DNA of 64,000 bases. Source: an uncultured Chloroflexia bacterium. GTDB taxonomy: Bacteria > Chloroflexota > Limnocylindria > Limnocylindrales > CSP1-4. The stretch is taken from positions 1-64,000 of the forward strand of contig CAVYIM010000005.1 in assembly GCA_963768655.1 (NCBI GenBank). Direction: 5' to 3'. Position numbers and translations under genes: made by a program. The notes beneath the pieces were generated by a model. That model was not told where the DNA came from. It did not search any database and worked only from the letters and a program-made list of their open reading frames with translations. Of this stretch, positions 39,792 to 54,416 are shown piece by piece. How positions within the stretch are numbered: position 1 is the stretch's first letter; each line of letters starts with the position of its first letter.

Positions 39792-39823
39792 GTGGTGGAA
39801 GGAGACTGGTCAGTATGCGAACC
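39792..39823. repeat. att-like repeat A1 (GTGGTGG-AAGGAGACTGGTCAGTATG-CGAACC; one extra A)
   Basis: Five copies in the array; 39792-39957 closely resembles 49443-49606. Confidence 0.85.
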
Positions 39824-39914
39824 AGCCTGGGGGCTCAATCCGGCGAACGCTGACCGTTATGAGAGTCACTCCGGCGCCAGCTGTCGCCCGCTCGCCTGAG
39901 GTCAGAACTGGGAG

Positions 39915-41186
39915 CTAGGGCCAGTACAGCTCGGCAGATGTCAGCCCGTCACCGACAATCATGACGCGCCCATCCTCCAGTTCGGCCGCATACGTGTAGC
40001 CCGGATACTCTTCGAGCATTGGTGCGGTCTTCTTGAACGTGCCAGTCACTGGGTCGTAGAGCTCGGCGGAATTGAGCGGCGTCGGTGGATTGTCGTCACT
40101 AAAGCCCGCCGCGACCAGGACCGAGCCGTTCTTCAGCAGGCAGGCGACCTGATCGCTTCGGCCGGTAACCATCGATCCGGTCGGGCTGAACTTGCCGCTC
40201 GCCGGGTCGTAGATCTCGGCGCTGGCCAACCCTACGCTATCGGCGTTCTCGCCTCCCGCGATCAGGACCCGACCATCGGGTAGCAGGGTGGCCGTGTGAT
40301 AGGCCCGTGCGGTGGTCATCGATCCTGTCGCGCTGAATTTGCCGCTCGTCGGGTCGTAGATCTCGGCGCTGGCCAGGTACTTGAGGTTGCCGTTGTCCTC
40401 GTCTCCGCCGACGATCAGGACCCGTCCGTCGGGCAGCAGGGTCGCGCTCTGGTTCTCTCGGCCAGTGATGAGCGAGCCGGTCGAGCTGAACTTGCCGGTT
40501 GACGGGTCATACAGCTCCGCCGAGCGCAGGAACACCTCGTCATCCTCGTTGTTCGCTCCGTGCACGCCCCCAACGACTAGGACCCTGCCGTCTTTGAGGG
40601 TCGTGGCCGTGTAGGGCGCCAAGAACCACTGGCCCTCCTCGGCCGCCCTATCCCCGTCGACCATCCGCCCGGCCAGGCTGAACTTGCCGCTCGTTGGGTC
40701 GTAGATCTCGGGGGCCGAGTCGGGAGATGCCCCGGTCACGAGCACTCGGCCATCGTTGAGCGGAGTCAGGACCTCGCCGACTCCTCCGGGTAAAAGCGAT
40801 CCGGTCAGGCTGAACGTGTTGCTCTTGGGATCGTACAGCTCGACGGCGTTCGATACGGGCCCATACTGAGGATCGGTTGGCCCATCGAGGACGAGGACTC
40901 GACCATCGGGCAGCAGGGCCGCCCTGAGGCTCTGATGGGTCGCCAGAAAGGGAGCCGCGAGCGTGAACACGCCGCTCGGGGTCGTGGGCGACGGTGTGGG
41001 AGTTGGCGCCAACGTCGGGCGTAGGCTGGCCGTCGGGCTCACGGCGGGGCTGGTCCTCAAGCTCGGGCCCGGAGATGGTGTTGCTGGGCTGCCGCCGCAG
41101 CCAGCAACGGCCAGCGCGAGGGTTAGCCCGGCGAATGCCCGCGCTGTGGAGCTGCCACCCAGAACGATCCGCGGACTGGCTCTCAC
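39915..41186 (-). CDS. Kelch-repeat beta-propeller lipoprotein K1
   Basis: GTG start with AGAGGGAG RBS, lipobox VAGC, P/T/S linker, repeats of ATLLPDGRVLIxGG...SAEIYDP. Confidence 0.9.
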   Translation of the reverse strand: MRASPRIVLGGSSTARAFAGLTLALAVAGCGGSPATPSPGPSLRTSPAVSPTASLRPTLAPTPTPSPTTPSGVFTLAAPFLATHQSLRAALLPDGRVLVLDGPTDPQYGPVSNAVELYDPKSNTFSLTGSLLPGGVGEVLTPLNDGRVLVTGASPDSAPEIYDPTSGKFSLAGRMVDGDRAAEEGQWFLAPYTATTLKDGRVLVVGGVHGANNEDDEVFLRSAELYDPSTGKFSSTGSLITGRENQSATLLPDGRVLIVGGDEDNGNLKYLASAEIYDPTSGKFSATGSMTTARAYHTATLLPDGRVLIAGGENADSVGLASAEIYDPASGKFSPTGSMVTGRSDQVACLLKNGSVLVAAGFSDDNPPTPLNSAELYDPVTGTFKKTAPMLEEYPGYTYAAELEDGRVMIVGDGLTSAELYWP

Positions 41187-41222
41187 GCTCTGTCTCCCTC
41201 TGCCATCGGTACGAACCAGGAT

Positions 41223-41246
41223 GACGGATCGAGGGAGCGCGCGTGA
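41223..41246 (-). promoter_or_regulatory. Conserved ECF-type promoter TCAC-N16-CGTC (K1)
   Basis: Same motif and spacing found upstream of all nine Kelch genes. Confidence 0.65.
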
Positions 41247-41282
41247 TGTCACGGCGGGCGGCAGCGACCGAACGGGAAGGAC

Positions 41283-41313
41283 GTGGTGGAGGAGACCGGG
41301 CAGTATGCGAACC
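41283..41313. repeat. att-like repeat A2
   Basis: GTGGTGGAGGAGACCGGGCAGTATGCGAACC. Confidence 0.85.
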
Positions 41314-41492
41314 GCATCCTCGGGCTGGTCCGACTATCGCTGGACCTCTCGCGGCGCAGCGGCAAGAGTGGGCCTACGTGCTTGGCCGACTGTCGCAAGA
41401 GCGAGGCGGCCGCCATCTGACAACAGGCTGGCGACTATCCGAGTTCCCAGGGCCTCGGAGTCCGCGCCAGCGCAGAGGAAGGTCCGCGCAGT

Positions 41493-42725
41493 CTAGGGCC
41501 TGTAGAGCTCGCAAGAGGTGAAGTCACCGCCACCACCGGTAACAAGTACCTCGCCATCTGCGAGCAGGGTCGCGGTGAAAGCCTGCCGCGGTGAGTGCAT
41601 CGAGCCAGTGGCGCTAAACGTGCCCGTGGCTGGATCGAACAGCTCCGCCGTTGCCAGGCCGTCGACCGGGTTGTCGTCGTTGATGCCGCCCGCCACCAGC
41701 ACTTTCCCGTTTGGAAGCAGGGCGGCCACGTCATCGGCTCGGGCCGTCGCCATCGATCCGGTAGGCGCGAACGAGTTGGTACTGGGGTCGAAGATCTCGG
41801 CGGACAAGGAATACAGACCGGTCAGATAGCTGAAGCCACCGGCGATCAGCACGCGGCCATCCCGAAGCAAGGTTGCGGTGTCCTGCTCGCGCTCGACAGT
41901 CATGTTCCCCGTGGGGCTGAACCTGCCAGTTCGAGGATCGTAGATCTCGCCCGTCGCGACGGTGGTCGCGGTTCCGGACTGAGGATCTCCACACGGTCCC
42001 CCGCCCGTGATTAGGACTCGCCCGTCCTGCAGCACCGTGGCCGTGGCGCCAGCACGCGCGGCCTCCATAGAGCCGGTGAAAGTGAACTTGTTCGACCTAG
42101 GATCGAATAGCTCCGCGGATGCCGTCAGGCAGTGGCCCGGACGCATGTCTCCGCCCCCGGCTATCAGAACGCGCCCGTCCTGAAGCAGGGCCACGGCGGC
42201 CTCGGACCGGTCGATGAGCGGCCTCACCGCAGCGAATTTGCCCGTGGCTGGATCGTAGATCTCGGCGCCCGTGTCCGTGGCCACGTGGGGTTCGTCCGGA
42301 TCCGCGGCACCGATGACAAGGACTCTGCCATCGAGCAGCGTTACCGCTGCCGGTTGCGTCCGGTAGTGCGAAAGTGAGCCGGTCGTGGTGAACGTCCCAG
42401 TCGAGGGGTCGTAGATCTCCGCTACCACACCACTTCCCACGACAAGGACTCGACCGTCACGGAGCATCGCCGCCGCATGCTGGACGCGGGGCTCGTGCAT
42501 TGAGCCGGTGAGCGTGAAGATTCCGTGGGCAGGAGTCGGCGAGAACGTGGGCGTCGAGGGCGAAGTAGGTTCGGCGCTCATCCTAGACGTAGGGCTGGAC
42601 GCAGGGCTCGTCGTCGGGCTCGGGATCGACGAGGGCAAGGCCGGGCTGCCTCCGCAACCGGCGACCGCCAGGACGAGGACTGCGGCGCGAAGGGGCCGCC
42701 CTGGCGAGCCAAGACCCACTCTCAC
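41493..42725 (-). CDS. Kelch-repeat lipoprotein K2 (paralogue of K9)
   Basis: Lipobox VAGC and Kelch repeats; 5' region identical to K9; GTG start chosen by RBS and promoter position. Confidence 0.9.
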   Translation of the reverse strand: MRVGLGSPGRPLRAAVLVLAVAGCGGSPALPSSIPSPTTSPASSPTSRMSAEPTSPSTPTFSPTPAHGIFTLTGSMHEPRVQHAAAMLRDGRVLVVGSGVVAEIYDPSTGTFTTTGSLSHYRTQPAAVTLLDGRVLVIGAADPDEPHVATDTGAEIYDPATGKFAAVRPLIDRSEAAVALLQDGRVLIAGGGDMRPGHCLTASAELFDPRSNKFTFTGSMEAARAGATATVLQDGRVLITGGGPCGDPQSGTATTVATGEIYDPRTGRFSPTGNMTVEREQDTATLLRDGRVLIAGGFSYLTGLYSLSAEIFDPSTNSFAPTGSMATARADDVAALLPNGKVLVAGGINDDNPVDGLATAELFDPATGTFSATGSMHSPRQAFTATLLADGEVLVTGGGGDFTSCELYRP

Positions 42726-42762
42726 CCTCTGTCTCCCACTGCCTTCGGACTGAATGCAGGAT

Positions 42763-42786
42763 GACGCATCCAGGAAGGGCACGTGA
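42763..42786 (-). promoter_or_regulatory. Conserved ECF-type promoter TCAC-N16-CGTC (K2)
   Basis: Motif conserved across the array. Confidence 0.65.
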
Positions 42787-42827
42787 CGTCACTGGGTAGT
42801 GTCGACCGACGGGCCGAGGAGACGGTG

Positions 42828-42868
42828 TGGGCGAGGTCGGGGTCGAACCGACACGCCGCTTACGCGGC
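42828..42868 (-). repeat. tRNA-Leu 3'-half copy T1
   Basis: 41 nt identical to 54332-54372 (variable arm, T arm, acceptor strand). Confidence 0.95.
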
Positions 42869-42963
42869 CAGCCCGGGGATGCTCTATCCAGTCCCTCGTG
42901 GCGGGCGATGCAAAATCGGCACTGTTAGCGTGTGAGTCGAACCCCGAGGAAGCCCAACGCAGC

Positions 42964-43093
42964 CTAGGCCGGTACAGCTCCGCCGAGGTGAGAACGATGC
43001 CGTCGAGGGCCTCGCGTCCAGGGATGAGAACCCGGCCGTCGGCGATCAGCGTGGCGGTCTGGTAGGCGCGCATGTCCTCATCGAGCCTGTCGG
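42964..43093 (-). pseudogene. Orphan C-terminal Kelch blade remnant
   Basis: RAYQTATLIADGRVLIPG...SAELYRP with indels; no start or promoter. Confidence 0.75.
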
Positions 43094-43109
43094 GTTCAAG
43101 CACCGCCCG

Positions 43110-44379
43110 TCAAGGTTTGAACAGCTCGGCGGAAGAGAAGGCTTCCTGACCGTCGCCTATGCCTCCCGCGATCAAAACGGTGCCGTCGGGCAGCAGGGTA
43201 GCCGTCTGATCGCTCCGGGCCTCGATCATCGAGCCGATCATGTGAAAGCCGGTTGCTGGGTCATATAGACCGGCCGAGTTCGCAGCACCGAGCCCGGTGC
43301 TTTCTGGAGAATTGAGGTTGCCACCCTCGAAGAGTACGCGGCCATCGGCGAGAAGAGTGGCGGTGGGACCGGACCATTGGTATGGTGTGGAGATCGATCC
43401 GGACATCGTGACCGAATTCTGTCGCGGGATCGTACGTGACCAGGTAGTCGTCGACACACAAGAGAACGCGACCGTCCTTGAGCACGGTGGCCGTGTCGGG
43501 CACTCCGTCGGCGGTCGGGATCACGGGCGGGAGCGAGAGTGAGATCGAGGTGGACTTGGCGCTGGCGGTGTCGTACAACTCCGCGTCAGGACCGCCGATC
43601 GTTCCGCCGATCACCAGGACTTTGCCATTGGGCAGGAGAGTCGCAGTGGCGCTGTCGTAGAAGTTCAGTAGCGAGCCATCGAGCGTGAACTTGCCGGTCG
43701 CCGGGTCGTACATCTCAGCTCGGGTTTCACCGCCATTGAGCATCAGGACGCGCCCGTCGGGCAGGAGAATCGCGCTGGCATCGGCGCGACCAACGGACAT
43801 CGATCCCGTGGGGGAGAACTTGCCCGTCGCCGGGTCGTACAGCTCGGCCGACGCAAGCGGGTCTGTTCCCGCCGTCACAGGACCGGGGGTGCACCCGCTC
43901 TTCCCAAGGCAGCCATAGCCACCGGCGATCAGGACGCGACCATCCGCCAGCAGCGTGGCAGTGGCATGGGAGCGAGCTGTCCTCATAGAGCCCGTGGGGG
44001 TGAACTGGCCGGTGCTCGGGTCGTACAGCTCTGCGGACGAGACGACCTCGTCAAACGACGCGGTCTGCACGTCGCCTCCTCCGGCGATGAGGACCTTGCC
44101 GTCCCGGAGCAGTGTGGCGGTGGCATCCATACGTGCGTCGTGCATTCTGCCGGTGGCGACGAACGTCGGAGTCGGTGTGGGAGTGGGGTTCGGGGTCGGC
44201 ATGGGCTTCCGGATCGGCGTGGCCGTGGGCGTCGAAGTGGAGCTGGTAGTCGGACTCAGGCTCGGCGAGGGCGAGGCCGGGCTTCCGCCGCACCCGGCGA
44301 CGGCCAGCACGAGAGCCACCGCGGCGAATGCCCGCCCTGTCGAGCCGCGGACCCTGTCGAGCCCCGGACTGGCCCTCAC
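43110..44379 (-). pseudogene. Kelch-repeat lipoprotein K3 with a +1 frameshift near 43415-43419
   Basis: ORFs 43261..44379 and 43110..43457 together align with K4; one extra base at ACAGAATTCG versus ACAGGCTCG in K4. Confidence 0.85.
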
Positions 44380-44416
44380 GCTCTGCCTCCCTCTGTCATC
44401 GAAACCACTGCAGGAT

Positions 44417-44440
44417 GACGCATCGGGGAAGCGCGCGTGA
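44417..44440 (-). promoter_or_regulatory. Conserved ECF-type promoter TCAC-N16-CGTC (K3)
   Basis: Motif conserved across the array. Confidence 0.65.
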
Positions 44441-44580
44441 TGCCACAGGATGGTGGCGTTGGCGGAGAGCGAAACGAGAATCGGCGGAGCTACCCCAGGC
44501 GATATGGTCTATGCGCGACGGCCTGGCGCTCCCTCAGGACTGGCACCATCTCGGTTCACGCTCAGTTCGGAGAGACGGTG

Positions 44581-44621
44581 TGGGCGAGGTCGGGGTCGAA
44601 CCGACACGCCGCTTACGCGGC
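44581..44621 (-). repeat. tRNA-Leu 3'-half copy T2
   Basis: Identical to 54332-54372. Confidence 0.95.
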
Positions 44622-44716
44622 CAGCCCGGGGATGCTCTATCCGGCCCCTCGTGGCGGGCGATGCAGAATCGGCCCTGTTAGCGTGTGAGTCGAACCCCGA
44701 GTAAGCCCAACGCAGC

Positions 44717-44847
44717 CTAAGGCCAGTACAGCTCCGCCGAGGCGAGAACGATACCGTCGAGGGCCTCGCCTCCAGAGATGAGAACCGGCCCATCGGCCAG
44801 CAGCGTGGCGGTCCGGTAGGCGCGCGGCCGGTCATCGAACCTGTCGG
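44717..44847 (-). pseudogene. Orphan C-terminal Kelch blade remnant
   Basis: RAYRTATLLADGPVLISGGEALDGIVLASAELYWP-stop, frameshifted at its 5' end. Confidence 0.75.
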
Positions 44848-44865
44848 TTTCAGGCGCCCCGCCCA

Positions 44866-46116
44866 TCAGGGTTTGAACAGTTCGGCAGACGAGAAGGCTT
44901 CCTGACCGTCGCCTATGCCTCCCGCGATCAAGACGGTGCCGTCAGGCAGCAGGGTTGCCGTCTGATCGCTCCGGGCCTCGATCATCGAGCCGATCATGTG
45001 AAAGCCATTGGCCGGGTCGTACACTCCGGCCAACCGGACGGCGGCTCCAGAGAGGTCGCGACCTCCCTCGAAGAGGACGCGCCCATCGGGGAGAGGTGTG
45101 GCGGTGGAAGCGGACCACGCGAGCGGGGGGGAGATCGACCCGGACATTGTGACCGAGCCTGTCGCCGGATCGAACGTGACCAGGTAGTCGTAGGCACTCA
45201 AGAGTACGCGGCCATCCTTGAGCAGCGTAGCCGTGTCGGGTGCTCCCCAGGTGGTCGGGATCACGGACGGGAGCGCGAATGAGATCGAGGTGGACTTGGC
45301 GCTGGCCGGATCGAACAGATCCGCTCTTGGGACGCTGTCATCGGCGATGACCAGGACCTGGCCATTGGGCAGGAGAGTCGCCGTGGCGCTGTCGTAGAAG
45401 TTCAGTAGCGAGCCATCGAGCGTGAACTTGCCGGTCGCCGGGTCGTACATCTCAGTTCGTCTGTCACCGCCATTGAGCATCAGGACGCGCCCGTCGGGCA
45501 GGAGAATCGCGCTGGCATCGGCGCGACCAACGGACATCGATCCCGTGGGGGAGAACTTGCCCGTCGCCGGGTCGTACAGCTCGGCCGACGCAAGCGGGTC
45601 TGTTCCCGCCGTCACAGGACCGGGGGTGCACCCGCTCTTCCCAAGGCAGCCATAGCCACCGGCGATCAGGACGCGACCATCCGCCAGCAGCGTGGCAGTG
45701 GCATGGGAGCGAGCTGTCCTCATAGAGCCCGTGGGGGTGAACTGGCCGGTGCTCGGGTCGTACAGCTCTGCGGACGAGACGACCTCGTCAAACGACGCGG
45801 TCTGCACGTCGCCTCCTCCGGCGATGAGGACCTTGCCGTCCCGGAGCAGTGTGGCGGTGGCATCCATACGTGCGTCGTGCATTCTGCCGGTGGCGACGAA
45901 CGTCGGAGTCGGTGTGGGAGTGGGGTTCGGGGTCGGCATGGGCTTCCGGATCGGCGTGGCCGTGGGCGTCGAAGTGGAGCTGGTAGTCGGACTCAGGCTC
46001 GGCGAGGGCGAGGCCGGGCTTCCGCCGCACCCGGCGACGGCCAGCACGAGAGCCACCGCGGCGAATGCCCGCCCTGTCGAGCCGCGGACCCTGTCGAGCC
46101 CCGGACTGGCCCTCAC
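44866..46116 (-). CDS. Kelch-repeat lipoprotein K4
   Basis: 416 aa, lipobox VAGC, Kelch repeats. Confidence 0.92.
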   Translation of the reverse strand: MRASPGLDRVRGSTGRAFAAVALVLAVAGCGGSPASPSPSLSPTTSSTSTPTATPIRKPMPTPNPTPTPTPTFVATGRMHDARMDATATLLRDGKVLIAGGGDVQTASFDEVVSSAELYDPSTGQFTPTGSMRTARSHATATLLADGRVLIAGGYGCLGKSGCTPGPVTAGTDPLASAELYDPATGKFSPTGSMSVGRADASAILLPDGRVLMLNGGDRRTEMYDPATGKFTLDGSLLNFYDSATATLLPNGQVLVIADDSVPRADLFDPASAKSTSISFALPSVIPTTWGAPDTATLLKDGRVLLSAYDYLVTFDPATGSVTMSGSISPPLAWSASTATPLPDGRVLFEGGRDLSGAAVRLAGVYDPANGFHMIGSMIEARSDQTATLLPDGTVLIAGGIGDGQEAFSSAELFKP

Positions 46117-46153
46117 GCTCTGCCTCCCTCTGTCATCGAAACCACTGCAGGAT

Positions 46154-46177
46154 GACGCATCGGGGAAGCGCGCGTGA
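46154..46177 (-). promoter_or_regulatory. Conserved ECF-type promoter TCAC-N16-CGTC (K4)
   Basis: Motif conserved across the array. Confidence 0.65.
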
Positions 46178-46317
46178 TGCCACAGGATGGTGGCGTTGGC
46201 GGAGAGCGAAACGAGAATCGGCGGAGCTACCCCAGGCGATATGGTCTATGCGCGACGGCCTGGCGCTCCCTCAGGACTGGCACCATCTCGGTTCACGCTC
46301 AGTTCGGAGAGACGGTG

Positions 46318-46358
46318 TGGGCGAGGTCGGGGTCGAACCGACACGCCGCTTACGCGGC
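46318..46358 (-). repeat. tRNA-Leu 3'-half copy T3
   Basis: Identical to 54332-54372. Confidence 0.95.
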
Positions 46359-46453
46359 CAGCCCGGGGATGCTCTATCCGGCCCCTCGTGGCGGGCGATG
46401 CAAAATCGGCCCTGTTAGCGTGTGAGTCGAACCCCGAGTAAGCCCAACGCAGC

Positions 46454-46584
46454 CTAAGGCCAGTACAGCTCCGCCGAGGCGAGAACGATACCGTCGAGGG
46501 CCTCGCCTCCAGAGATGAGAACCGGCCCATCGGCCAGCAGCGTGGCGGTCCGGTAGGCGCGCGGCCGGTCATCGAACCTGTCGG
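46454..46584 (-). pseudogene. Orphan C-terminal Kelch blade remnant
   Basis: Copy of 44717-44847. Confidence 0.75.
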
Positions 46585-46602
46585 TTTCAGGCGCCCCGCC
46601 CA

Positions 46603-47853
46603 TCAGGGTTTGAACAGTTCGGCAGACGAGAAGGCTTCCTGACCGTCGCCTATGCCTCCCGCGATCAAGACGGTGCCGTCAGGCAGCAGGGTTGCCGTCT
46701 GATCGCTCCGGGCCTCGATCATCGAGCCGATCATGTGAAAGCCATTGGCCGGGTCGTACACTCCGGCCAACCGGACGGCGGCTCCAGAGAGGTCGCGACC
46801 TCCCTCGAAGAGGACGCGCCCATCGGGGAGAGGTGTGGCGGTGGAAGCGGACCACGCGAGCGGGGGGGAGATCGACCCGGACATTGTGACCGAGCCTGTC
46901 GCCGGATCGAACGTGACCAGGTAGTCGTAGGCACTCAAGAGTACGCGGCCATCCTTGAGCAGCGTAGCCGTGTCGGGTGCTCCCCAGGTGGTCGGGATCA
47001 CGGACGGGAGCGCGAATGAGATCGAGGTGGACTTGGCGCTGGCCGGATCGAACAGATCCGCTCTTGGGACGCTGTCATCGGCGATGACCAGGACCTGGCC
47101 ATTGGGCAGGAGAGTCGCCGTGGCGCTGTCGTAGAAGTTCAGTAGCGAGCCATCGAGCGTGAACTTGCCGGTCGCCGGGTCGTACATCTCAGTTCGTCTG
47201 TCACCGCCATTGAGCATCAGGACGCGCCCGTCGGGCAGGAGAATCGCGCTGGCATCGGCGCGACCAACGGACATCGATCCCGTGGGGGAGAACTTGCCCG
47301 TCGCCGGGTCGTACAGCTCGGCCGACGCAAGCGGGTCTGTTCCCGCCGTCACAGGACCGGGGGTGCACCCGCTCTTCCCAAGGCAGCCATAGCCACCGGC
47401 GATCAGGACGCGACCATCCGCCAGCAGCGTGGCAGTGGCATGGGAGCGAGCTGTCCTCATAGAGCCCGTGGGGGTGAACTGGCCGGTGCTCGGGTCGTAC
47501 AGCTCTGCGGACGAGACGACCTCGTCAAACGACGCGGTCTGCACGTCGCCTCCTCCGGCGATGAGGACCTTGCCGTCCCGGAGCAGTGTGGCGGTGGCAT
47601 CCATACGTGCGTCGTGCATTCTGCCGGTGGCGACGAACGTCGGAGTCGGTGTGGGAGTGGGGTTCGGGGTCGGCATGGGCTTCCGGATCGGCGTGGCCGT
47701 GGGCGTCGAAGTGGAGCTGGTAGTCGGACTCAGGCTCGGCGAGGGCGAGGCCGGGCTTCCGCCGCACCCGGCGACGGCCAGCACGAGAGCCACCGCGGCG
47801 AATGCCCGCCCTGTCGAGCCGCGGACCCTGTCGAGCCCCGGACTGGCCCTCAC
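46603..47853 (-). CDS. Kelch-repeat lipoprotein K5 (protein identical to K4)
   Basis: Translation in the ORF track is identical to K4. Confidence 0.92.
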   Translation of the reverse strand: MRASPGLDRVRGSTGRAFAAVALVLAVAGCGGSPASPSPSLSPTTSSTSTPTATPIRKPMPTPNPTPTPTPTFVATGRMHDARMDATATLLRDGKVLIAGGGDVQTASFDEVVSSAELYDPSTGQFTPTGSMRTARSHATATLLADGRVLIAGGYGCLGKSGCTPGPVTAGTDPLASAELYDPATGKFSPTGSMSVGRADASAILLPDGRVLMLNGGDRRTEMYDPATGKFTLDGSLLNFYDSATATLLPNGQVLVIADDSVPRADLFDPASAKSTSISFALPSVIPTTWGAPDTATLLKDGRVLLSAYDYLVTFDPATGSVTMSGSISPPLAWSASTATPLPDGRVLFEGGRDLSGAAVRLAGVYDPANGFHMIGSMIEARSDQTATLLPDGTVLIAGGIGDGQEAFSSAELFKP

Positions 47854-47890
47854 GCTCTGCCTCCCTCTGTCATCGAAACCACTGCAGGAT

Positions 47891-47914
47891 GACGCATCGG
47901 GGAAGCGCGCGTGA
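47891..47914 (-). promoter_or_regulatory. Conserved ECF-type promoter TCAC-N16-CGTC (K5)
   Basis: Motif conserved across the array. Confidence 0.65.
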
Positions 47915-48025
47915 TGCCACAGGATGGTGGCGTTGGCGGAGAGCGAAACGAGAATCGGCGGAGCTACCCCAGGCGATATGGTCTATGCGCGACGGCCTGG
48001 CGCTCCCTCAGGACTGGCACCATCT

Positions 48026-48082
48026 CGGTTCACGCTCAGTTCGGAGAGACGGTGTGGAGGAGACTGGTCAGTATGCGAACCG
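48026..48082. repeat. Hybrid att-like site A3 (attP-like junction)
   Basis: Left arm as in T2/T3, right arm as in the A repeats; terminal inverted repeat CGGTTC...GAACCG centred near the GTGG core. Confidence 0.8.
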
Positions 48083-48203
48083 GACGGCCGGAATAGTCCG
48101 GCGTCCGTTAGCGGTCAGCCGATCCCGCCGCTCGGCATCATCGACGGCATGAGCACGAAGAACAGTGAGCCACCCCGCAACCCGAGCTTCGACCCAAAGC
48201 CAG

Positions 48204-49373
48204 CTACGGCCAGTACAACTCTGCCGAAGGGCCGCCGTCCAGTGCTCCACCGGCGATCAGGACTCGCCCATCGGTGAGCAGGGTGGCGGTCTGGTTGAAC
48301 CGGGCAATGGTCATCGATCCTGTCGGCGTGAACGTGCCCGTGACAGGATCGTACAGCTCGGCCGACGTAAGGGCCACCGAGTCGTCGTTCGCTCCTCCAA
48401 CCACGAGAACCATGCCATCGGCGAGCAGGGTGGCGGTGAAGTACTGGCGCGCATCGTGCATCGATCCGGTCGGGCTGAACTTGCCGGCGGCAGGATCGTA
48501 CAGCTCGGCCGAGGCGAGGGTCCCGGAGTCGTCGCTGCCTCCGGCGACCAGAACCTGGCCATCGGTGAGCAAGGTGGCGGTGAAGTCTGTCCGTGGCGAG
48601 TGCATCGATCCCGTCGGGCTGAACTTGCCCGTCGCCGGGTTGTAGATCTCGGCCGACGCCCAGTACTGTCCATCCACGGCTCCCTCGCCGCCGACAACCA
48701 GGACCCGACCGTCCGCCAATCGTGTGGCCGTGAAGTCCAGGCGCCCCGTCATCATCGACCCAGTCGGGGTGAACTTGCCAGTGGCCGGGTCGTATAGGTC
48801 GGCCGTGTTGACTAGATCACCTCCTCCTACGATCAGGACGTGACCGTTCTGCAGCAAGATGGCTCTTTGTCCGCCGTGCACCATCGATCCCGCTGGGCTG
48901 AACGTGCCTGTCGCGGGATCGTATAGCTCGGCCGTGTTGTCGATGCCGCCCGCGATCAGCACTCGGCCGTCCGAGAGCAGTGTGGCCGTGTGGTAGGCCC
49001 GAGCGGTCGTCATCGATCCCGTCGCACTGAACTTGCCGGTGGCCGGGTCATACAGCTCCGCGGTGGCCACCGCACTGTTGACCATGCCCCCGGCGACGAG
49101 GACCCGGCCATTGCCCAACAGAGTCGCGGTTTCGAAGGTCCGGTTGGTGCTCATCGATCCAGTGACAATGAACGTGCCGTGGGCGGGCGTGGGTGAAGGT
49201 GCGGGAGTTGGCGCGAACGTCCGGCTCGGGCCGGCCGTCGGGCCCACGGCGGGGCTCGTCGTCGGGCTCTGGCTCGGCGAGGGCGAGGCCGGGCTGCCCA
49301 CACAGCCTGCGACGGCCCAGGCGAGGACCGCTACGGCAAGCGGCCGTCTCACCGAACGACGCCTGACTCCCAT
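48204..49373 (-). CDS. Kelch-repeat lipoprotein K6
   Basis: ATG with AGAGGGAG RBS, lipobox VAGC, seven Kelch-like repeats. Confidence 0.92.
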   Translation of the reverse strand: MGVRRRSVRRPLAVAVLAWAVAGCVGSPASPSPSQSPTTSPAVGPTAGPSRTFAPTPAPSPTPAHGTFIVTGSMSTNRTFETATLLGNGRVLVAGGMVNSAVATAELYDPATGKFSATGSMTTARAYHTATLLSDGRVLIAGGIDNTAELYDPATGTFSPAGSMVHGGQRAILLQNGHVLIVGGGDLVNTADLYDPATGKFTPTGSMMTGRLDFTATRLADGRVLVVGGEGAVDGQYWASAEIYNPATGKFSPTGSMHSPRTDFTATLLTDGQVLVAGGSDDSGTLASAELYDPAAGKFSPTGSMHDARQYFTATLLADGMVLVVGGANDDSVALTSAELYDPVTGTFTPTGSMTIARFNQTATLLTDGRVLIAGGALDGGPSAELYWP

Positions 49374-49410
49374 GCGCCGTCTCCCTCTGCCATTGGAACG
49401 AACTGAGGAT

Positions 49411-49434
49411 GACGCATCGTAGCAAAGCAGGTGC
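49411..49434 (-). promoter_or_regulatory. ECF-type promoter variant GCAC-N16-CGTC (K6)
   Basis: Same spacing and CGTCATCC -10 region as the other copies. Confidence 0.55.
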
Positions 49435-49442
49435 CGCTCAAA

Positions 49443-49473
49443 GTGGTGGAGGAGACTGGTCAGTATGCGAACC
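49443..49473. repeat. att-like repeat A4
   Basis: GTGGTGGAGGAGACTGGTCAGTATGCGAACC. Confidence 0.85.
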
Positions 49474-49567
49474 AGCCTGGGGGCTCAATCCGGCGAACGC
49501 TGGCCGTCGTGCGAGCCACTCCGGCGCCAGCTCTCGCCCGCTCGCCTGAGGTGAGAACTGGAAGATG

Positions 49568-49606
49568 GGGCCAATAGAGCTCGGCAGATGTCAGCCCGTC
49601 ACTGAC
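49568..49606 (-). pseudogene. Remnant of a K1-type C-terminus (DGLTSAELYWP)
   Basis: Matches the last codons of K1 within the A1/A4 duplicated segment. Confidence 0.7.
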
Positions 49607-49733
49607 AGCCCGACGAGCATGCGCCACCTGGGACTCCGCATCTTCCCGACTCGTGCCAGCCTCATCCATCTCGTCGACACGGTCCTACCGACTCGGATGA
49701 CAAGTCGCGCTAGCCAGGCGTCGACGCTCGGAG

Positions 49734-50858
49734 CTAGCCAGTCAGCTTGTACACCATCGCCTGCCTCGTGCCCGGTGCGTCCTGATAGTCGGTCGATCCA
49801 CCAATCACGAGGACGCGGCCGTCGGCCAGCAGGGTCTGTATCTTGGTATCGCCGCCTGCTCCTCCACCTCCGATGACGCTGAAGGACTCCGAGCTCGGGT
49901 CATACAGGAAGGCGTCAATACTGCCAATGATCAGTACTCGGCCGTCTGACACAGCCGTCGCGCTTTCGGTCCCGTCTCCTGCGGGCTGCGAAATCGATCG
50001 AAATCGACGAGTCGACGGGTCGAAGAGCTCGGCCGAACGTGGCACAAAGACGCCCAGCTGGTTCGCGGTATCAGCCCAACCGCCGACCACGAGAACCTGC
50101 CGGTTGGGCAACAAGATAGCCGTGTGATCTGATCGCGCCTCTACCAGACTCCCGGTCGCGCTAAATGTTCCCGTCGCCGTGTCGTAGATCTCAGCGGAGG
50201 CGATCCTAGCTCCGTCGGTGGACACGCCTCCAGCGATCAACACTCCGACGCCCGGGATCAGAGTGGCGGTTTGGAGCTCTCGGGCCTGGTTCATCGACCC
50301 GGTCAGAGCGAACGCGCCAGTCGCCGGATCGTACAGTTCGGCCGTCGGCGAGCCGTGCGTACCGGTCTGCCCGGAACCACCTGCGATGAGCACTCGGCCG
50401 TCTGGCAAGAGCGTGGCGGTCCCGTTCCAGTGCGGCTCATGCATCGACCCGGTGGCGGCAAATGTGCTAGACCTGGGATCGAACAGCTCGGCGGTCCCAA
50501 GCTCGTCGCCCCCGGCAATCAGCACGCGGCCGTCCGAGAGGCGAACGGCCATCGCCTCTGAACGCGCCTGAACCATCGTTCCAGTCAGGGTGAAGGTGCC
50601 CGTCTTGGGGTCGAACAACTCTGCGGTGCCCTTGCCATCGCCACCCGCCACCAGCACTCGACCGTCCTGGAGCAGAGTCGCGGTCGGCCACCATCGAGCG
50701 ACGTTCATCTGCGTATGCGTGACCGCGAGCGATGGCCCGGTCGCGCCGCAGCCTGCAAGGACCAGGATCACCGCAAGCGCCATTCCGGCAGTAAGGACGT
50801 GGCGGCTCAGAGTGACGTGGGTCCTACGATCCGTGTTTGTGCCTCCTCCCTCTGACAT
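49734..50858 (-). CDS. Kelch-repeat lipoprotein K7 (start uncertain; lacks the long P/T linker)
   Basis: Lipobox LAGC and Kelch repeats. Confidence 0.85.
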   Translation of the reverse strand: MSEGGGTNTDRRTHVTLSRHVLTAGMALAVILVLAGCGATGPSLAVTHTQMNVARWWPTATLLQDGRVLVAGGDGKGTAELFDPKTGTFTLTGTMVQARSEAMAVRLSDGRVLIAGGDELGTAELFDPRSSTFAATGSMHEPHWNGTATLLPDGRVLIAGGSGQTGTHGSPTAELYDPATGAFALTGSMNQARELQTATLIPGVGVLIAGGVSTDGARIASAEIYDTATGTFSATGSLVEARSDHTAILLPNRQVLVVGGWADTANQLGVFVPRSAELFDPSTRRFRSISQPAGDGTESATAVSDGRVLIIGSIDAFLYDPSSESFSVIGGGGAGGDTKIQTLLADGRVLVIGGSTDYQDAPGTRQAMVYKLTG

Positions 50859-50875
50859 CGGCGCGAACACAGGAT

Positions 50876-50899
50876 GACGCATCGAAGCTAGGAGCGTGA
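50876..50899 (-). promoter_or_regulatory. Conserved ECF-type promoter TCAC-N16-CGTC (K7)
   Basis: Motif conserved despite divergent flanks. Confidence 0.65.
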
Positions 50900-51122
50900 G
50901 GCTTCAGGGGGTTGGTTGGTCCTCGCCCGATAGGCGGGCGAACCGCCCGGCTGGAACGGCGGGAAACTGCCGCGCAGGATCACGGCCTACCGTACTGCGC
51001 AGTCAGGTCGCTTCCCCCCATCTATGGATATCATCAGCTCGATAAGGTCTATGCGCGACGGCCTGGCGCCCCCCCCCAGGACTGGCACCATCTCGGTTCA
51101 CGCTCAGTTCGGAGAGGCGGTG

Positions 51123-51162
51123 TGGCGAGGTCGGGGTCGAACCGACACGCCGCTTACGCGGC
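51123..51162 (-). repeat. tRNA-Leu 3'-half copy T4 (one base missing in the acceptor strand)
   Basis: 40 nt matching 54332-54372 with a 1-nt deletion. Confidence 0.92.
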
Positions 51163-51261
51163 CAGCCCGGGGATGCTCTATCCGGCCCCTCGTGCCAGGC
51201 GATGCAGAATCGGCACTGTTAGCGTGTGAGTCAAAGCCCGGTCTCCGAGGCCCAACGCAGG

Positions 51262-51392
51262 CTACGGCCAGTACAGCTCCGCCGAGGTGAGAACGATACC
51301 GTCGAGGGCCTCGCGTCCAGGGATGAGAACCCGGCCGTCGGCGATCAGCGTGGCGGTCTGGTAGGCGCGCATGTCCTCATCGAGCCTGTCGG
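51262..51392 (-). pseudogene. Orphan C-terminal Kelch blade remnant
   Basis: Near-copy of 42964-43093, ends SAELYWP-stop. Confidence 0.75.
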
Positions 51393-51408
51393 GTTCAAGC
51401 ACCGCCCG

Positions 51409-52695
51409 TCAAGGTTTGAACAGCTCGGCGGACGAGAGAATGCTTACCTGGTCCGAGGTGCCTCCCGCGATCAAGACTGTGCCGTTGGCCAGCAGTGTTG
51501 CCGTGTGATCAGCTCGCGGCTGTGGCATGGAGACTGTGTCCTGGTAGCCAGAGGCTGGGTCGTACAGGCCTGCCGCATCGGTAGTGTCTTGGGAAACAGC
51601 GGTTACGGCATAGCCCCCTGCAAAGAACACACGCCCATCCGAGAGGAGCGTTGGCGTAGTCAACCAGTCGCCAGGAGCGGCGATCGATCCCGACTGCCTG
51701 AGCGAGCCAGTCACTAGATCGTAGGTCACAAGGTTGTCGTTTATACACAGCAGAACGTGGCCATCCCTGAGCGGAATGAGCGTGTATGGAGTGGGTGGAT
51801 AGACACCGGCGTCGGGATCGAGCGAGATAGAACTCGACTTGCCAGTGGCTGGATCGAACAGTTCAGCGGCCGGGCCATCAGCAACGGTGGGGCCAACTAT
51901 CAGGACCTTCCCGTCGGGCAGCACGGCCGCCGAGGTGGCGGCTCCGATACCCACGCCACTGACGTTGGGGAATACGTCCACATAGTCGTTCTGTAGCGAA
52001 CCGTCGCGCGTGAACTTGCCAGTAGTCGGGTCATACAGCTCAACCAGTTTCGACCCGCCCAGCAGTATCAGGACCTGCCCATCGGGCAGGAGCAGGGAAT
52101 TGGCACCGGAGCGAGCGACGGCCATCAAACCGGTGCGAGTGAACTCGCCAGTCGTGGAGTCATACAGCTCGGCAGACGCGAGAGGGCCTTCGCCGTCGGC
52201 TGTGTCGAGCGCACAGCTCCTGGTGACGCAGCCATAGCCGCCGGCCATCAGGACCCGCCCGTCGGGCAGGAGGATGGCAGCGGCGTCGGAGCGACCAGTC
52301 GCCATGGAGCCTGTGGGCGTGAACTTGCCAGTGGTCGGGTCGTACAGCTCGGCCGATGCGAGGACTGGTGCGTGCAGGAAGGGAACAGAAGGCATCGCCC
52401 GGGCTCCTCCGGCGATGAGGACCTCGCCGTCCCGCAGCAGTGTGGCGGTGGCGTAGATCCGGGGGGCGCTCATGCTGCCGGTGACGACGAACGTCGGGGC
52501 TGGCGTGGGCGACGGTGTCGGCGTGGGCGTGGGACTCGGCGACAATGTGGCGCTCGGGCGGGCAGTCGGGCTGGGGCTCGGCCAGGGCGAGGCCGGGCTT
52601 CCCCCGCATCCGGCGATGGCCAGCACGAGGACCAATGCGGCGCATGCCCGGCCCGTCGAGCCGCGGACCCTATCAATCCCCGGACTGGCTCTCAC
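51409..52695 (-). CDS. Kelch-repeat lipoprotein K8 (paralogue of K3-K5)
   Basis: GTG start with AGAGGGAG RBS, lipobox IAGC, Kelch repeats, ends SAELFKP. Confidence 0.9.
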   Translation of the reverse strand: MRASPGIDRVRGSTGRACAALVLVLAIAGCGGSPASPWPSPSPTARPSATLSPSPTPTPTPSPTPAPTFVVTGSMSAPRIYATATLLRDGEVLIAGGARAMPSVPFLHAPVLASAELYDPTTGKFTPTGSMATGRSDAAAILLPDGRVLMAGGYGCVTRSCALDTADGEGPLASAELYDSTTGEFTRTGLMAVARSGANSLLLPDGQVLILLGGSKLVELYDPTTGKFTRDGSLQNDYVDVFPNVSGVGIGAATSAAVLPDGKVLIVGPTVADGPAAELFDPATGKSSSISLDPDAGVYPPTPYTLIPLRDGHVLLCINDNLVTYDLVTGSLRQSGSIAAPGDWLTTPTLLSDGRVFFAGGYAVTAVSQDTTDAAGLYDPASGYQDTVSMPQPRADHTATLLANGTVLIAGGTSDQVSILSSAELFKP

Positions 52696-52732
52696 GCTCT
52701 GCCTCCCTCTGTCATCGAAACCACTGCAGGAT

Positions 52733-52756
52733 GACGCATCGGGGAAGCGTGCGTGA
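52733..52756 (-). promoter_or_regulatory. Conserved ECF-type promoter TCAC-N16-CGTC (K8)
   Basis: Motif conserved across the array. Confidence 0.65.
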
Positions 52757-52790
52757 TGCCACAGGGCGTCGGTCGAAAGTGAAACCAGAA

Positions 52791-52821
52791 GTGGTGGAGG
52801 AGACCGGGCAGTATGCGAACC
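52791..52821. repeat. att-like repeat A5
   Basis: GTGGTGGAGGAGACCGGGCAGTATGCGAACC. Confidence 0.85.
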
Positions 52822-53002
52822 AGCCTGGGGGCTCAATCCGGCGAACGCAGGCCGTTGTGCGAGCGCCATCTGACAACCGTCTTCGTTCCGACTGCTGCAT
52901 CTGATCTACGTCGACTACATCGCCGGTAGGTTCCGAGCGCAGTGGCGTGTGGCGAACGGCTGGTCAATTCGCCGACTGTTCGCCAACGCAGAAGCCGGTA
53001 GC

Positions 53003-54229
53003 CTACGGCCGGTAGAGCTCGCAGACGGCACTGTCGATTGCTCCGCCGGCCACGAGTACGTCGCCATCTGAAAGCAAGGTTGCTGTGAAGAACGACCGGG
53101 GCCAGTGCATAGATCCGGTGGCGGAGAACGTGCCAGTGGTCGGATCGAACAGCTCAGCGCTTGCTACGCCGTCTTCCTGGTTGTCGGCATTGTTGCCTCC
53201 AGCCACCAGCACCTTCCCGTCCGGAAGCAGGACGGCCACGTCGTCGGATCGGGCCGTTCCCATCGATCCAGTCGGTACGAATCGGTTGGTGCTGGGGTCG
53301 AAGAGCTCGGCGGACGAGTAATACTGGCCACTCAGGTAACTGAAGCCGCCGGCGATCAGCACGCGGCCGTCCGGAAGGAGCGTTGCTGTGTCTTCCTCGC
53401 GTTCGACACTCATGTTGCCTGCGGGACTGAACGTGCCGGTTCGAGGGTCGTAGATCTCCGCCGTGGCATAAGTAGTGGCCGTCCCGGATTGCGGATCTCC
53501 GCACGATCCTCCACCGGCGACAAGAACTCGGCCGTCGCTGAGTGCAGTGGCGGTGGCCCCCGCGCGCGCAGCCCTCATCGAGCCTGTCATCGTGAACTTG
53601 CCAGACGTAGGGTCGTACAGCTCTGCAGACGCCACGCAATCCTCTGAGCGAGAGCGGACATCCGCGCCACCAGCTACGAGGACGCGTCCGTCCTGCAGCA
53701 GGGCCACCGCCGGACCAGAGCGGTCCACCAGCGGTCTAGCCGGGATGAACTTGCCCGTGGCCGGATCGTAGAGCTCGGCGCCAGTGTCCTTGGCGTCGAC
53801 GTTGTCCGCAGCGCCCACGACTAGGACTCGGCCATCGAGCAGGGTTACTGCCGAGGGCTCCGTGCGGTCGTGCGAAAGTGAGCCGGTCGTGGTGAACGTC
53901 CCGGTCGAGGGGTCGTAGATCTCGGCGACCACGCCGCTCGCCACGAGAAGTACCCGCCCGTCACGGAGCATCGCCGCTGCGTGCTGCGCGCGGAGATCAC
54001 GCATCGAGCCGGTGAGCGTGAAGGTTCCGCGGGCAGGAGTCGGCGAGAACGTGGGCGTCGAGGGCGAAGTAGGTTCGGCGCTCATCCTAGACGTAGGGCT
54101 GGACGCAGGGCTCGTCGTCGGGCTCGGGATCGACGAGGGCAAGGCCGGGCTGCCTCCGCAACCGGCGACCGCCAGGACGAGGACTGCGGCGCGAAGGGGC
54201 CGCCCTGGCGAGCCAAGACCCACTCTCAC
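53003..54229 (-). CDS. Kelch-repeat lipoprotein K9
   Basis: Lipobox VAGC and Kelch repeats; first gene downstream of the tRNA. Confidence 0.9.
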   Translation of the reverse strand: MRVGLGSPGRPLRAAVLVLAVAGCGGSPALPSSIPSPTTSPASSPTSRMSAEPTSPSTPTFSPTPARGTFTLTGSMRDLRAQHAAAMLRDGRVLLVASGVVAEIYDPSTGTFTTTGSLSHDRTEPSAVTLLDGRVLVVGAADNVDAKDTGAELYDPATGKFIPARPLVDRSGPAVALLQDGRVLVAGGADVRSRSEDCVASAELYDPTSGKFTMTGSMRAARAGATATALSDGRVLVAGGGSCGDPQSGTATTYATAEIYDPRTGTFSPAGNMSVEREEDTATLLPDGRVLIAGGFSYLSGQYYSSAELFDPSTNRFVPTGSMGTARSDDVAVLLPDGKVLVAGGNNADNQEDGVASAELFDPTTGTFSATGSMHWPRSFFTATLLSDGDVLVAGGAIDSAVCELYRP

Positions 54230-54266
54230 CCTCTGTCTCCCACTGCCTTCGGACTGAATGCAGGAT

Positions 54267-54290
54267 GACGCATCCAGGAAGGGCACGTGA
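54267..54290 (-). promoter_or_regulatory. Conserved ECF-type promoter TCAC-N16-CGTC (K9)
   Basis: Motif conserved across the array. Confidence 0.65.
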
Positions 54291-54331
54291 CGTCACTGGG
54301 TAGTGTCGACCGACGGGCCGAGGAGACGGTG

Positions 54332-54416
54332 TGGGCGAGGTCGGGGTCGAACCGACACGCCGCTTACGCGGCACCAGCTCCTAAGGCTGGCGCGTCTGCC
54401 ATTCCGCCACTCGCCC
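54332..54416 (-). tRNA. tRNA-Leu(TAG), CCA not encoded
   Basis: GGGCGAG/CTCGCCC acceptor stem, GCGGAATGGCAGACGC D arm, CCAGC-CTTAGGA-GCTGG anticodon arm, long variable arm GCCGC-GTAA-GCGGC, GTCGG-TTCGACC-CCGAC T arm. Confidence 0.97.

Follow-up and report, generated by a model that had tools for sequence, protein, structure and literature searches.

A tandem array of Kelch lipoprotein genes behind tRNA-Leu(TAG) in an uncultured Limnocylindrales bacterium, probably built by accretion of integrative elements of two recombinase classes

How does a bacterial chromosome come to carry nine paralogous genes in a row behind a single tRNA gene, each of them bracketed by short repeats? The question is raised by a 64,000-nucleotide stretch of DNA (hereafter the window; contig C5, positions 1-64000) from an uncultured Limnocylindrales bacterium, whose genome, labeled G000, is a metagenome-assembled genome (MAG) of 3.37 Mb in 9 contigs, with ~69% G+C and 88.6% completeness; sister genomes are labeled G001-G063, and our genus-wide scans covered 51 genomes. 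Directly downstream of tRNA-Leu(TAG) lie nine co-oriented minus-strand open reading frames (ORFs; 39915-54286), all of them Kelch lipoprotein genes, eight intact and the ninth frameshifted. A first-pass annotation, made from the sequence alone, had taken this interval for a new integron-like system of single-gene cassettes; our comparisons instead explain the apparent new system by known mechanisms. The interval is probably an accretion array at a tRNA integration hot spot, where two families of integrative elements, one of the tyrosine-integrase and one of the large serine recombinase (LSR) type, used tRNA-Leu(TAG) or displaced copies of it.

Repeats and junctions of the array

Read from its distal border toward the tRNA gene, the array has the order A1-K1-A2-K2-T1-K3-T2-K4-T3-K5-A3-K6-A4-K7-T4-K8-A5-K9-tRNA, in which K denotes the Kelch genes and A and T denote two kinds of repeat; a motif search returned exactly the order given in the annotation, and the nine co-oriented Kelch genes were likewise confirmed, with the reservation that K3 is frameshifted. 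T consists of four copies of a 50-nt segment from the 3' side of the tRNA gene, which spans tRNA positions ~45-86 and the adjoining 8 nt; of these copies T1-T3 are 100% identical to the tRNA and T4 has a 1-nt deletion; upstream of each T runs a conserved non-coding arm of ~80 nt, the P arm. A is a 28-nt motif in five copies, with no others in the 3.37-Mb genome at <=3 mismatches and one weak copy, at 5 mismatches, on another contig. Across the genus the A motif occurs in 7 of the 51 genomes and the T-arm pattern in 6, and reversed-pattern controls for both gave 0 matches in the same 51 genomes. The features, ordered from the tRNA gene to the distal flank, are as follows.

54331-54416, minus strand: tRNA-Leu(TAG), found by ARAGORN; probable attB of both element families; T1-T4 repeat its 3' 42 nt and 8 nt of flank
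53003-54229, minus strand: K9, Kelch lipoprotein gene; start by homology, ORF open to 54286, conserved box and short upstream ORF (uORF) before it
52794-52821, minus strand: A5, P half-site of an LSR attachment site (attR scar); LSR C-terminal tail remnant on the opposite strand, to ~52904
51409-52695, minus strand: K8, Kelch lipoprotein gene; GTG start at 52695 by homology, mechanical ORF reaching 52869 across A5
51114-51408, minus strand: Kelch 3' fragment (...AELYWP, then stop), P arm and T4 (51114-51162, 1-nt deletion); core pattern 51169-51195
49734-50882, minus strand: K7, Kelch lipoprotein gene without a P/S/T linker; orthologue of G046 unit 2
49446-49607, minus strand: A4 (49446-49473), LSR-tail remnant and K1-like Kelch 3' end fragment; 92% identical to 39800-39957
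48204-49373, minus strand: K6, Kelch lipoprotein gene; orthologous to the tRNA-proximal units of G004 and G046
48054-48081, minus strand: A3, LSR P half-site of a distinct tail lineage, by motif search and junction alignment
42819-48057, minus strand: tandem triplication K3ψ, K4, K5; period 1,737 bp
46603-47853, minus strand: K5, Kelch lipoprotein gene; protein identical to K4
46309-46440, minus strand: T3 (46309-46358) and P arm; core pattern 46365-46391
44866-46116, minus strand: K4, Kelch lipoprotein gene inside the triplication
44572-44703, minus strand: T2 (44572-44621) and P arm; core pattern 44628-44654
43110-44379, minus strand: K3, frameshifted mosaic pseudogene; C-terminus goes on in another frame to 43110
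42819-42950, minus strand: T1 (42819-42868) and P arm; core pattern 42875-42901
41493-42725, minus strand: K2, Kelch lipoprotein gene, paralogue of K9 by homology
41286-41313, minus strand: A2, LSR P half-site of a third tail lineage, by motif search and tail comparison
39915-41186, minus strand: K1, Kelch lipoprotein gene; start by homology, ORF open to 41252
39796-39914, minus strand: A1 (39796-39823) and LSR-tail remnant, distal array border, by motif search and tail comparison
38137-39726, plus strand: PGA_cap-family gene (Pfam), conserved flank, convergent with the array

When all repeats are aligned on the CCAC that they have in common, their left sides fall into two families and their right sides mix freely: what follows A3 is exactly the sequence that follows T2 and T3, what follows T1 is the sequence after the real tRNA, and what follows A1 is the ancestral chromosomal flank, homologous to the flank after a T copy in the sister genome G012. 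Before each P arm stands a last-blade fragment of another Kelch gene with the ending ...AELYWP and stop, and since such Kelch 3' fragments precede T1-T4 as well as A4, the spacers of the array include gene fragments. No further copies of the T arms or the spacers were found elsewhere in G000, where outside matches were confined to Kelch coding sequence or to the upstream box described below. The GTGG...CGAACC string that the annotation had read as common to all repeats is indeed present, but it reflects the T-loop and acceptor end of tRNA-like sequence in two site types that are otherwise unrelated.

Two kinds of integration scar

On sequence evidence, T is a displaced tRNA 3' end of ~50 nt joined to a conserved arm, that is, the attR scar of a tyrosine-integrase island. 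The evidence comes foremost from G012, the closest relative (flank DNA 86% identical), in which a Phage_integrase gene (PF00589, 3.9e-25; L031:14193-15155) lies directly beside the same tRNA-Leu(TAG); behind it come a DnaB-like helicase, a RES-domain gene and another integrase. In its 3' half the G012 tRNA differs from T at 6 of 28 positions, a divergence that is the mark of a 3' half supplied by the element, and on another contig of the same genome the orthologous PGA_cap flank borders on a T copy whose arm agrees with the P arm but for 1 mismatch in 27. Moreover, the sequence after the core in units of G000 and G004 shares two blocks, TGAGCGTGAWC and CGCATAGACCATA, spaced 37-38 nt apart, with the leader between tRNA and integrase in G012. 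These correspondences with G012 make T with its arms the attR/attL pair of a tyrosine-integrase island family.

Islands of this kind end, on the side away from the tRNA, in a direct repeat of its 3' part, of which the array holds four copies, and they have an integrase beside the regenerated tRNA. This integrase is absent in G000: a PF00589 search of the window gave no match, the nearest one lying at C5:270 kb. Neither in G000 nor in G004, G005, G046 and G006 was a cognate integrase found, the best matches to the G012 enzyme being 47-54% identical, so that the annotation's proposal to search the genome for a recombinase tied to the arms brought none to light in G000. A tyrosine integrase at C4:253341-254453, 52% identical to that of G012 and directly beside tRNA-Gly(ccc), probably belongs to another integrated element. 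A separate integrase fragment (C3:289454-289606; 63% identical to the G012 integrase over 51 aa) adjoins the dispersed Kelch paralogue at C3:287608-288810.

Both arms, and no recombination genes, are found in the T-type units U3-U5 of G000 and in the units of G004 and G046; upstream of K7, 84 nt of a type-2 P' arm are retained (51040-51125). Cis-mobilizable elements (CIMEs), known from accretion among streptococcal integrative elements of the conjugative (ICE) and the mobilizable (IME) kind, have att sites on both sides, lack recombination and transfer genes and stand in tandem with related elements. The T-type units resemble them in being flanked by att-type arms, in lacking recombination genes and in their tandem placement, and differ in being much smaller; they are miniature recombinase-less elements comparable to CIMEs, which a cognate integrase may still mobilize in trans.

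The A repeat has a different origin: it is, as judged from the comparison of loci, the P half of the attR scar of an LSR family. In three relatives the A core recurs, as an inverted 14-nt copy, 6 nt past the CCA of a tRNA, namely tRNA-Leu(tag) in G024, tRNA-Val(tac) in G042 and tRNA-Val(cac) in G057, and an A motif follows 7.5, 2.0 and 5.6 kb downstream, respectively. These three elements share their ends only (77-197 nt on the left, 30-72 nt on the right) and carry unrelated cargo, and the ORF that runs through the left end toward the tRNA encodes an LSR (Recombinase, 2.9e-17; Zn_ribbon_recom, 2.9e-11), which in G024 is truncated at the N-terminus. LSR matches at E <= 1e-30 occur in 9 of the 51 genomes, and further copies stand at tRNA-Leu(tag) in G051, tRNA-Ile(tat) in G001, tRNA-Ala(ggc) in G005 and tRNA-Val(cac) in G063, each with CCA plus 6 nt and then the inverted core. 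The family is accordingly seen at five kinds of tRNA, Leu(tag), Ile(tat), Ala(ggc), Val(cac) and Val(tac), with the same 14-nt half-site (loci compared: L196, L197, L198, L199, L200, L082, L084 and L034). All three LSR domains (Resolvase, Recombinase and Zn_ribbon) are found in G051 (L196:1036-3252) and G005 (L198:796-2643); the A motif lies 12.6 kb from the tRNA in G005 and 11.6 kb from it in G063, and the G051 element measures only ~2.9 kb and holds the LSR gene and seemingly little else.

The motif is also tied to the recombinase by the strand opposite, which at 13 of 13 A sites examined encodes VEETGQYAN..G.IRRSLAVAR, in frame with the recombinase across the site, which suggests that the LSR gene spans its own attP. 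In G000 the five A copies fall into three distinct versions of this tail (A1/A4/A5, A2 and A3), and three diverged tails imply at least three separate integrations. In the integrated state the LSR ORF runs antisense into the tRNA, and in the circular state the A arm would supply the final 30-45 codons; integration might thus swap the C-terminal tail of the LSR, a possible switch for directionality or expression. LSR elements typically have an attP of ~50 bp with inverted half-sites and, once integrated, attL/attR hybrids; in the relatives inverted 14-nt copies stand at both element ends, on the tRNA side and on the A side, and in G000 the P half only is present. The presumed crossover point would lie at the CCACCA end of the tRNA. 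As no left-end copies of the LSR site accompany them, the A-type units are half-scars and not complete elements, and instead of an LSR gene the array contains only C-terminal tail remnants opposite the A motifs.

Other explanations of the A motif were considered and set aside. As an opposite-strand gene start (GGAGG plus ATG) it would open only short, arginine-rich ORFs, and the true frame is that of the LSR tail. As a known RNA it found no Rfam family at E <= 1 in 11 loci, the sole match being the ALIL pseudoknot of an IS3 element in G024. As a sigma-70 promoter, suggested by TTGAC-like and CATACT-like hexamers in the sequence, it is superfluous given the link to the LSR, and A1 faces the end of a convergent gene. 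Elsewhere in G000, decayed ends of LSR elements lie at C3:575957 (tRNA-Ala ggc), at C3:603294 (tRNA-Ala cgc) and at C9:169957-171116 (tRNA-Ile tat, with an A-like motif), and these ends beside three other tRNAs include frameshifted remnants of the recombinase C-terminus. The decayed element of G024 (L034 1572-6460) comprises an RHS-repeat ORF, an IS256-family transposase and an IS3-family transposase with the ALIL frameshift pseudoknot; the IS3 copy removes the 5' end of a Kelch gene, and three relatives of the IS256 transposase (77% identical) lie on contig C5 of G000.

With both repeats assigned, the integron analogy can be judged. Integrons combine an IntI integrase that adjoins an attI site with promoterless cassettes that end in attC hairpin sites. 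The array resembles them in that co-oriented single-gene units are separated by recombination sites, and to this extent the annotation's description of single Kelch genes bounded by recombination-site sequences is supported, as is its observation that the interval lacks an integrase (no Phage_integrase, Resolvase or LSR-query match in the window). The likeness ends there: neither IntI nor attI stands beside the array, the repeats are tRNA-derived (T) or LSR half-sites (A) and not attC sites, and they descend from a tRNA and from element attP arms. The units also have upstream regions of their own and could be expressed independently of any platform promoter. The claim of a new integron-like system is therefore not sustained; what the array preserves are scars of two ordinary recombinase classes.

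Variation between genomes and the weighing of explanations

At least 1.4 kb downstream of tRNA-Leu(TAG) was inspected in 21 sister genomes, 16 of which have no Kelch gene there; in several of these Kelch-free genomes the tRNA is followed directly by orthologues of the window genes at 36.3-32.8 kb or by the PGA_cap gene. Kelch units come directly after the tRNA in G004, G005 and G046, a Kelch fragment lies 6.6 kb away in G024 and a Kelch gene 5.5 kb away in G001. The PGA_cap gene, which the annotation had mistaken for tig, adjoins a T copy in G004, G006, G012 and G046 and the tRNA itself in G007. Most informative is G046, where the locus lies on a single contig with both flanks ~83% identical to the window: the tRNA is followed by two successive units, each composed of P' arm, box, Kelch gene, P arm and T, and then by PGA_cap. 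G004 has the same first unit as G046 and a last unit adjoining PGA_cap, and G005 has at least four Kelch genes with T arms between them. Between common flanks, the unit count is nine in G000 and zero, two (G046) or more in sister genomes.

The order of units differs as well. In a quick gene tree with Shimodaira-Hasegawa-like approximate likelihood ratio test (SH-aLRT) support, from which one of 40 rows was left out (G000_C4_529978, too short at 151 aa), K7 groups with G046 unit 2 (SH-aLRT 100) and K6 with unit 1 of G004 and G046 (99). The K6 type is tRNA-proximal in G046, whereas in G000 it is K7 that lies nearer the tRNA, and this reversal, together with the differing unit number, means that array number and order vary between genomes with the same flanks, as the comparison of relatives suggested by the annotation was meant to reveal. 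The array genes fall into at least four old clades, each with orthologues in the arrays of other species.

The arms have diverged far less than what they enclose. Between species the P arms (80 nt, non-coding) are 88.8-97.5% identical (46 pairs, mean 93.1), compared with ~83% for flanking DNA and 72-75% for orthologous Kelch genes; K6 is 74-75% identical to its orthologues in G004 and G046, and K7 72.5% to that in G046. Within G046 itself, P arms at least 93.8% and P' arms 90% identical surround genes that are 62% identical. Such conservation, read from alignments, argues for constraint or recent exchange.

These comparisons bear on a rival reading, that of an active cassette platform, functionally analogous to an integron, in which non-autonomous single-gene units continue to be excised, reinserted and shuffled at the tRNA by a recombinase encoded elsewhere. 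The T-type units retain both arms, the arms are better conserved than cargo genes and flanking DNA, unit number and order vary between species with identical flanks, and different Kelch genes sit between near-identical arms in G046. We nevertheless hold such a platform to be unlikely, given the want of a cognate recombinase in the five genomes searched, the A-type units without a left half-site, the decay that pseudogenes and gene fragments indicate, and public sequencing runs that yielded no junction evidence from their short contigs. In one such run the contigs, short and of low depth, held 21% of the sampled words, and the putative joints, with sides of 20-32 nt, were cross-matches between Kelch repeats and have no bearing on excision. 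A narrower variant strikes us as doubtful, if slightly less so: that the T units are single-gene mini-islands with selected att arms, moved by a trans-acting integrase like that of G012, which would make tRNA-Leu(TAG) a Kelch cassette platform at a site common with the attP-spanning LSR family.

Homologous recombination has also been at work in the array. K3-K5 make up a tandem repeat with a 1,737-bp period, whose copies agree at 99.2-99.7% between 43608 and 48057; each copy consists of P' arm, box, Kelch gene, Kelch 3' fragment, P arm and T copy, and the whole is, on the evidence of its sequence, an ordinary homologous tandem duplication. The 3' part of K3 is frameshifted and a mosaic, with identities of 86-95%. 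Between K2 and K9 the overall identity is 82%, rising to 94% in the 5' 550 nt together with the upstream region. One could accordingly suppose that RecA-type tandem duplication and divergence of one tRNA-adjacent Kelch gene, with the tRNA 3' part included by chance, produced the whole array with no site-specific step, and the tandem repeat, the upstream region with T that K2 and K9 have in common, and the recombination inside coding sequence to which the Kelch 3' fragments and the chimeric K3 attest all speak for it. Such duplication leaves unexplained, however, the A motif (an LSR end at other tRNAs elsewhere, with three diverged tails here), the P and P' arms common with an integrase-bearing island, the at least four old clades with orthologues in other arrays, and the placement of junctions precisely at the CCAC core. 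Taken as the only mechanism, duplication is largely refuted and very improbable; as a contributor it stands. The annotation's expectation that duplication breakpoints would fall on the repeats is borne out in one respect, since the one informative boundary, the end of the 1,737-bp repeat, coincides precisely with the CCAC of A3, and fails in another, given the plain homologous duplication of K3-K5, the chimeric pseudogene and the fragments.

A faulty assembly or binning, with repeats collapsed or chimerically joined, deserves mention because the genome is a MAG and near-identical tandem copies are hard to assemble. The architecture recurs, however, in the independent assemblies of G004, G005 and G046, the flanks are syntenic on both sides, and short contigs from a public run match the stretch at 100% identity at eight places, which makes an artefact negligibly probable.

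Accretion by two element families, the explanation that we prefer, would have proceeded as follows. Elements of the T type would have recombined within the tRNA 3' half by means of a tyrosine integrase, their scar being the displaced 50-nt tRNA fragment with the P arm before it (attR) and the P' arm after it; elements of the A type would have recombined by means of an LSR at the CCACCA end of tRNAs and left a P half-site at the far end. If both types carried a Kelch lipoprotein gene beside the far end, repeated insertion and subsequent loss of the recombinase modules could have left one Kelch gene per scar, and unequal homologous crossing-over would have triplicated one unit (K3-K5) and made the chimeric pseudogene and several gene fragments. 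The outcome would be a variable repertoire of membrane-anchored Kelch beta-propeller proteins.

Several observations weigh against this sequence of events. The 99.7% identical triplication needs no site-specific step, and the array contains a recombinase of neither family. In G000 the nearest relative of the G012 integrase reaches just 52% identity and stands at tRNA-Gly(ccc); the genome has no intact LSR of the family, remnants being found at two tRNA-Ala genes only, and left-end (P') copies of the LSR site are missing from its array. With the MAG at 88.6% completeness, a recombinase could be missing from the assembly. The two ends of the G012 island, at the tRNA and at T, are on separate contigs, with a gap between C118 and C10, and the island was not seen whole. 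The intact LSR elements inspected (G005 contig C13, G063 and G051) have no Kelch gene, the decayed G024 element being the only one of those inspected that carries one. Finally, the gene tree is a quick version with SH-aLRT support only.

Precedents, and the Kelch genes themselves

The building of arrays from stacked integrating elements is already known; what is new here is the compact, single-gene, two-recombinase form of it, together with ordinary duplication. The closest precedent, by analogy, is provided by the tandem ssrA islands of Dehalococcoides, which are reported to be bounded by direct repeats of the 3' end of ssrA and to have a large serine recombinase, encoded on the reverse strand, beside attL (McMurdie et al. 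2011, PMC3146451). Fifteen of those islands lack an integration module and were read by their authors as cis-mobilizable elements joined by accretion; rdhA paralogues accumulate at the site, and no duplicate islands are reported within a strain (PMC3146451). The two cases agree in a Chloroflexota host, in tandem islands behind a tRNA-like gene and bounded by repeats of its 3' end, in the presence of an LSR family, in units that lack an integration module and in the accumulation of one paralogous family. They differ in that the target here is a tRNA-Leu gene and not ssrA, with two recombinase classes at one site; in that the LSR family is found at no fewer than five tRNA species, with a gene that appears to extend across its own attP; in that the units are single genes of 1.4-1.8 kb with a Kelch lipoprotein as cargo, in place of multi-gene islands; and in the recent triplication.

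Islands in tRNA genes are usually the work of tyrosine integrases and leave a displaced fragment behind, as stated in the Islander paper (PMC4383910). Like such tRNA and tmRNA islands, the elements at issue regenerate the target with their own sequence and leave a displaced 3' fragment at the far end (the T copies, and G012); unlike them, the islands of G000 have lost the integrase, hold one cargo gene between the arms and are stacked four deep. Our literature search found nothing on Kelch arrays in Limnocylindria, and titles and opening lines of abstracts on LSRs and tRNA genes included none describing this LSR family, which is no proof of its being unpublished.

The array shows how an uncultured lineage builds and varies a family of ~30 Kelch lipoprotein genes, how integrative elements can shrink to a single cargo gene whose flanking arms are more conserved than the gene itself, and how one tRNA gene serves as common target of tyrosine and serine recombinase families. 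The compact LSR (the ~2.9-kb element of G051), with at least five tRNA targets, could moreover interest collectors of serine integrases for genome engineering.

As for the genes themselves, Pfam Kelch_1, Kelch_4 or Kelch_6 matched in five of five proteins scanned (K1, K4, K6, K7 and K9); K2, K3 and K8 were assigned by homology, and K5 equals K4. A lipobox L-x-[AG]-G-C is read in nine of nine translations, from which lipidation is predicted, and a linker rich in proline, serine and threonine (P/S/T) in all but K7. G+C at third codon positions (GC3) is 0.73-0.79 in the eight genes measured in frame (K8 left out) and 0.81-0.93 in neighboring ORFs, which were listed with a GC3 cut of 0.80. The rest of G000 holds ~20 further Kelch loci and one short fragment, and these dispersed paralogues show little association with tRNAs, one lying within 6 kb at only 3 of the 21 loci outside the array. 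In other species a tRNA is present at 6 of 80 loci of K6 relatives, and at the thresholds used none of these 80 has A, T or arm motifs, bar one T-like match with 5 mismatches. In a MAG labeled Proteobacteria (L149 5594-7065), a tRNA-Leu(tag) lies ~320 nt upstream of a K6 relative, which may represent a like tRNA-Kelch association in another lineage or a binning error.

Every unit has its own upstream region, with a Shine-Dalgarno sequence, a conserved box, a uORF and a putative promoter. The box, CGATGCGTCATCCTG, has 14 copies in the G000 genome against 0 in a reversed control: nine lie in the array, upstream of every array gene (e.g., 46113-46160 and 54226-54273), and the others at C5:158295, C3:689740, C4:531368/531702 and C5:165034, at least four of these five at loci of dispersed Kelch paralogues. 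An ATG within the box starts the uORF, MRHP..., which in K4 and K9 has 15 codons and a TGA in overlap with the GTG at which the Kelch gene starts; the uORF of K6 continues further and that of K7 is joined in frame to the gene, an arrangement that may point to a leader peptide or to translational coupling.

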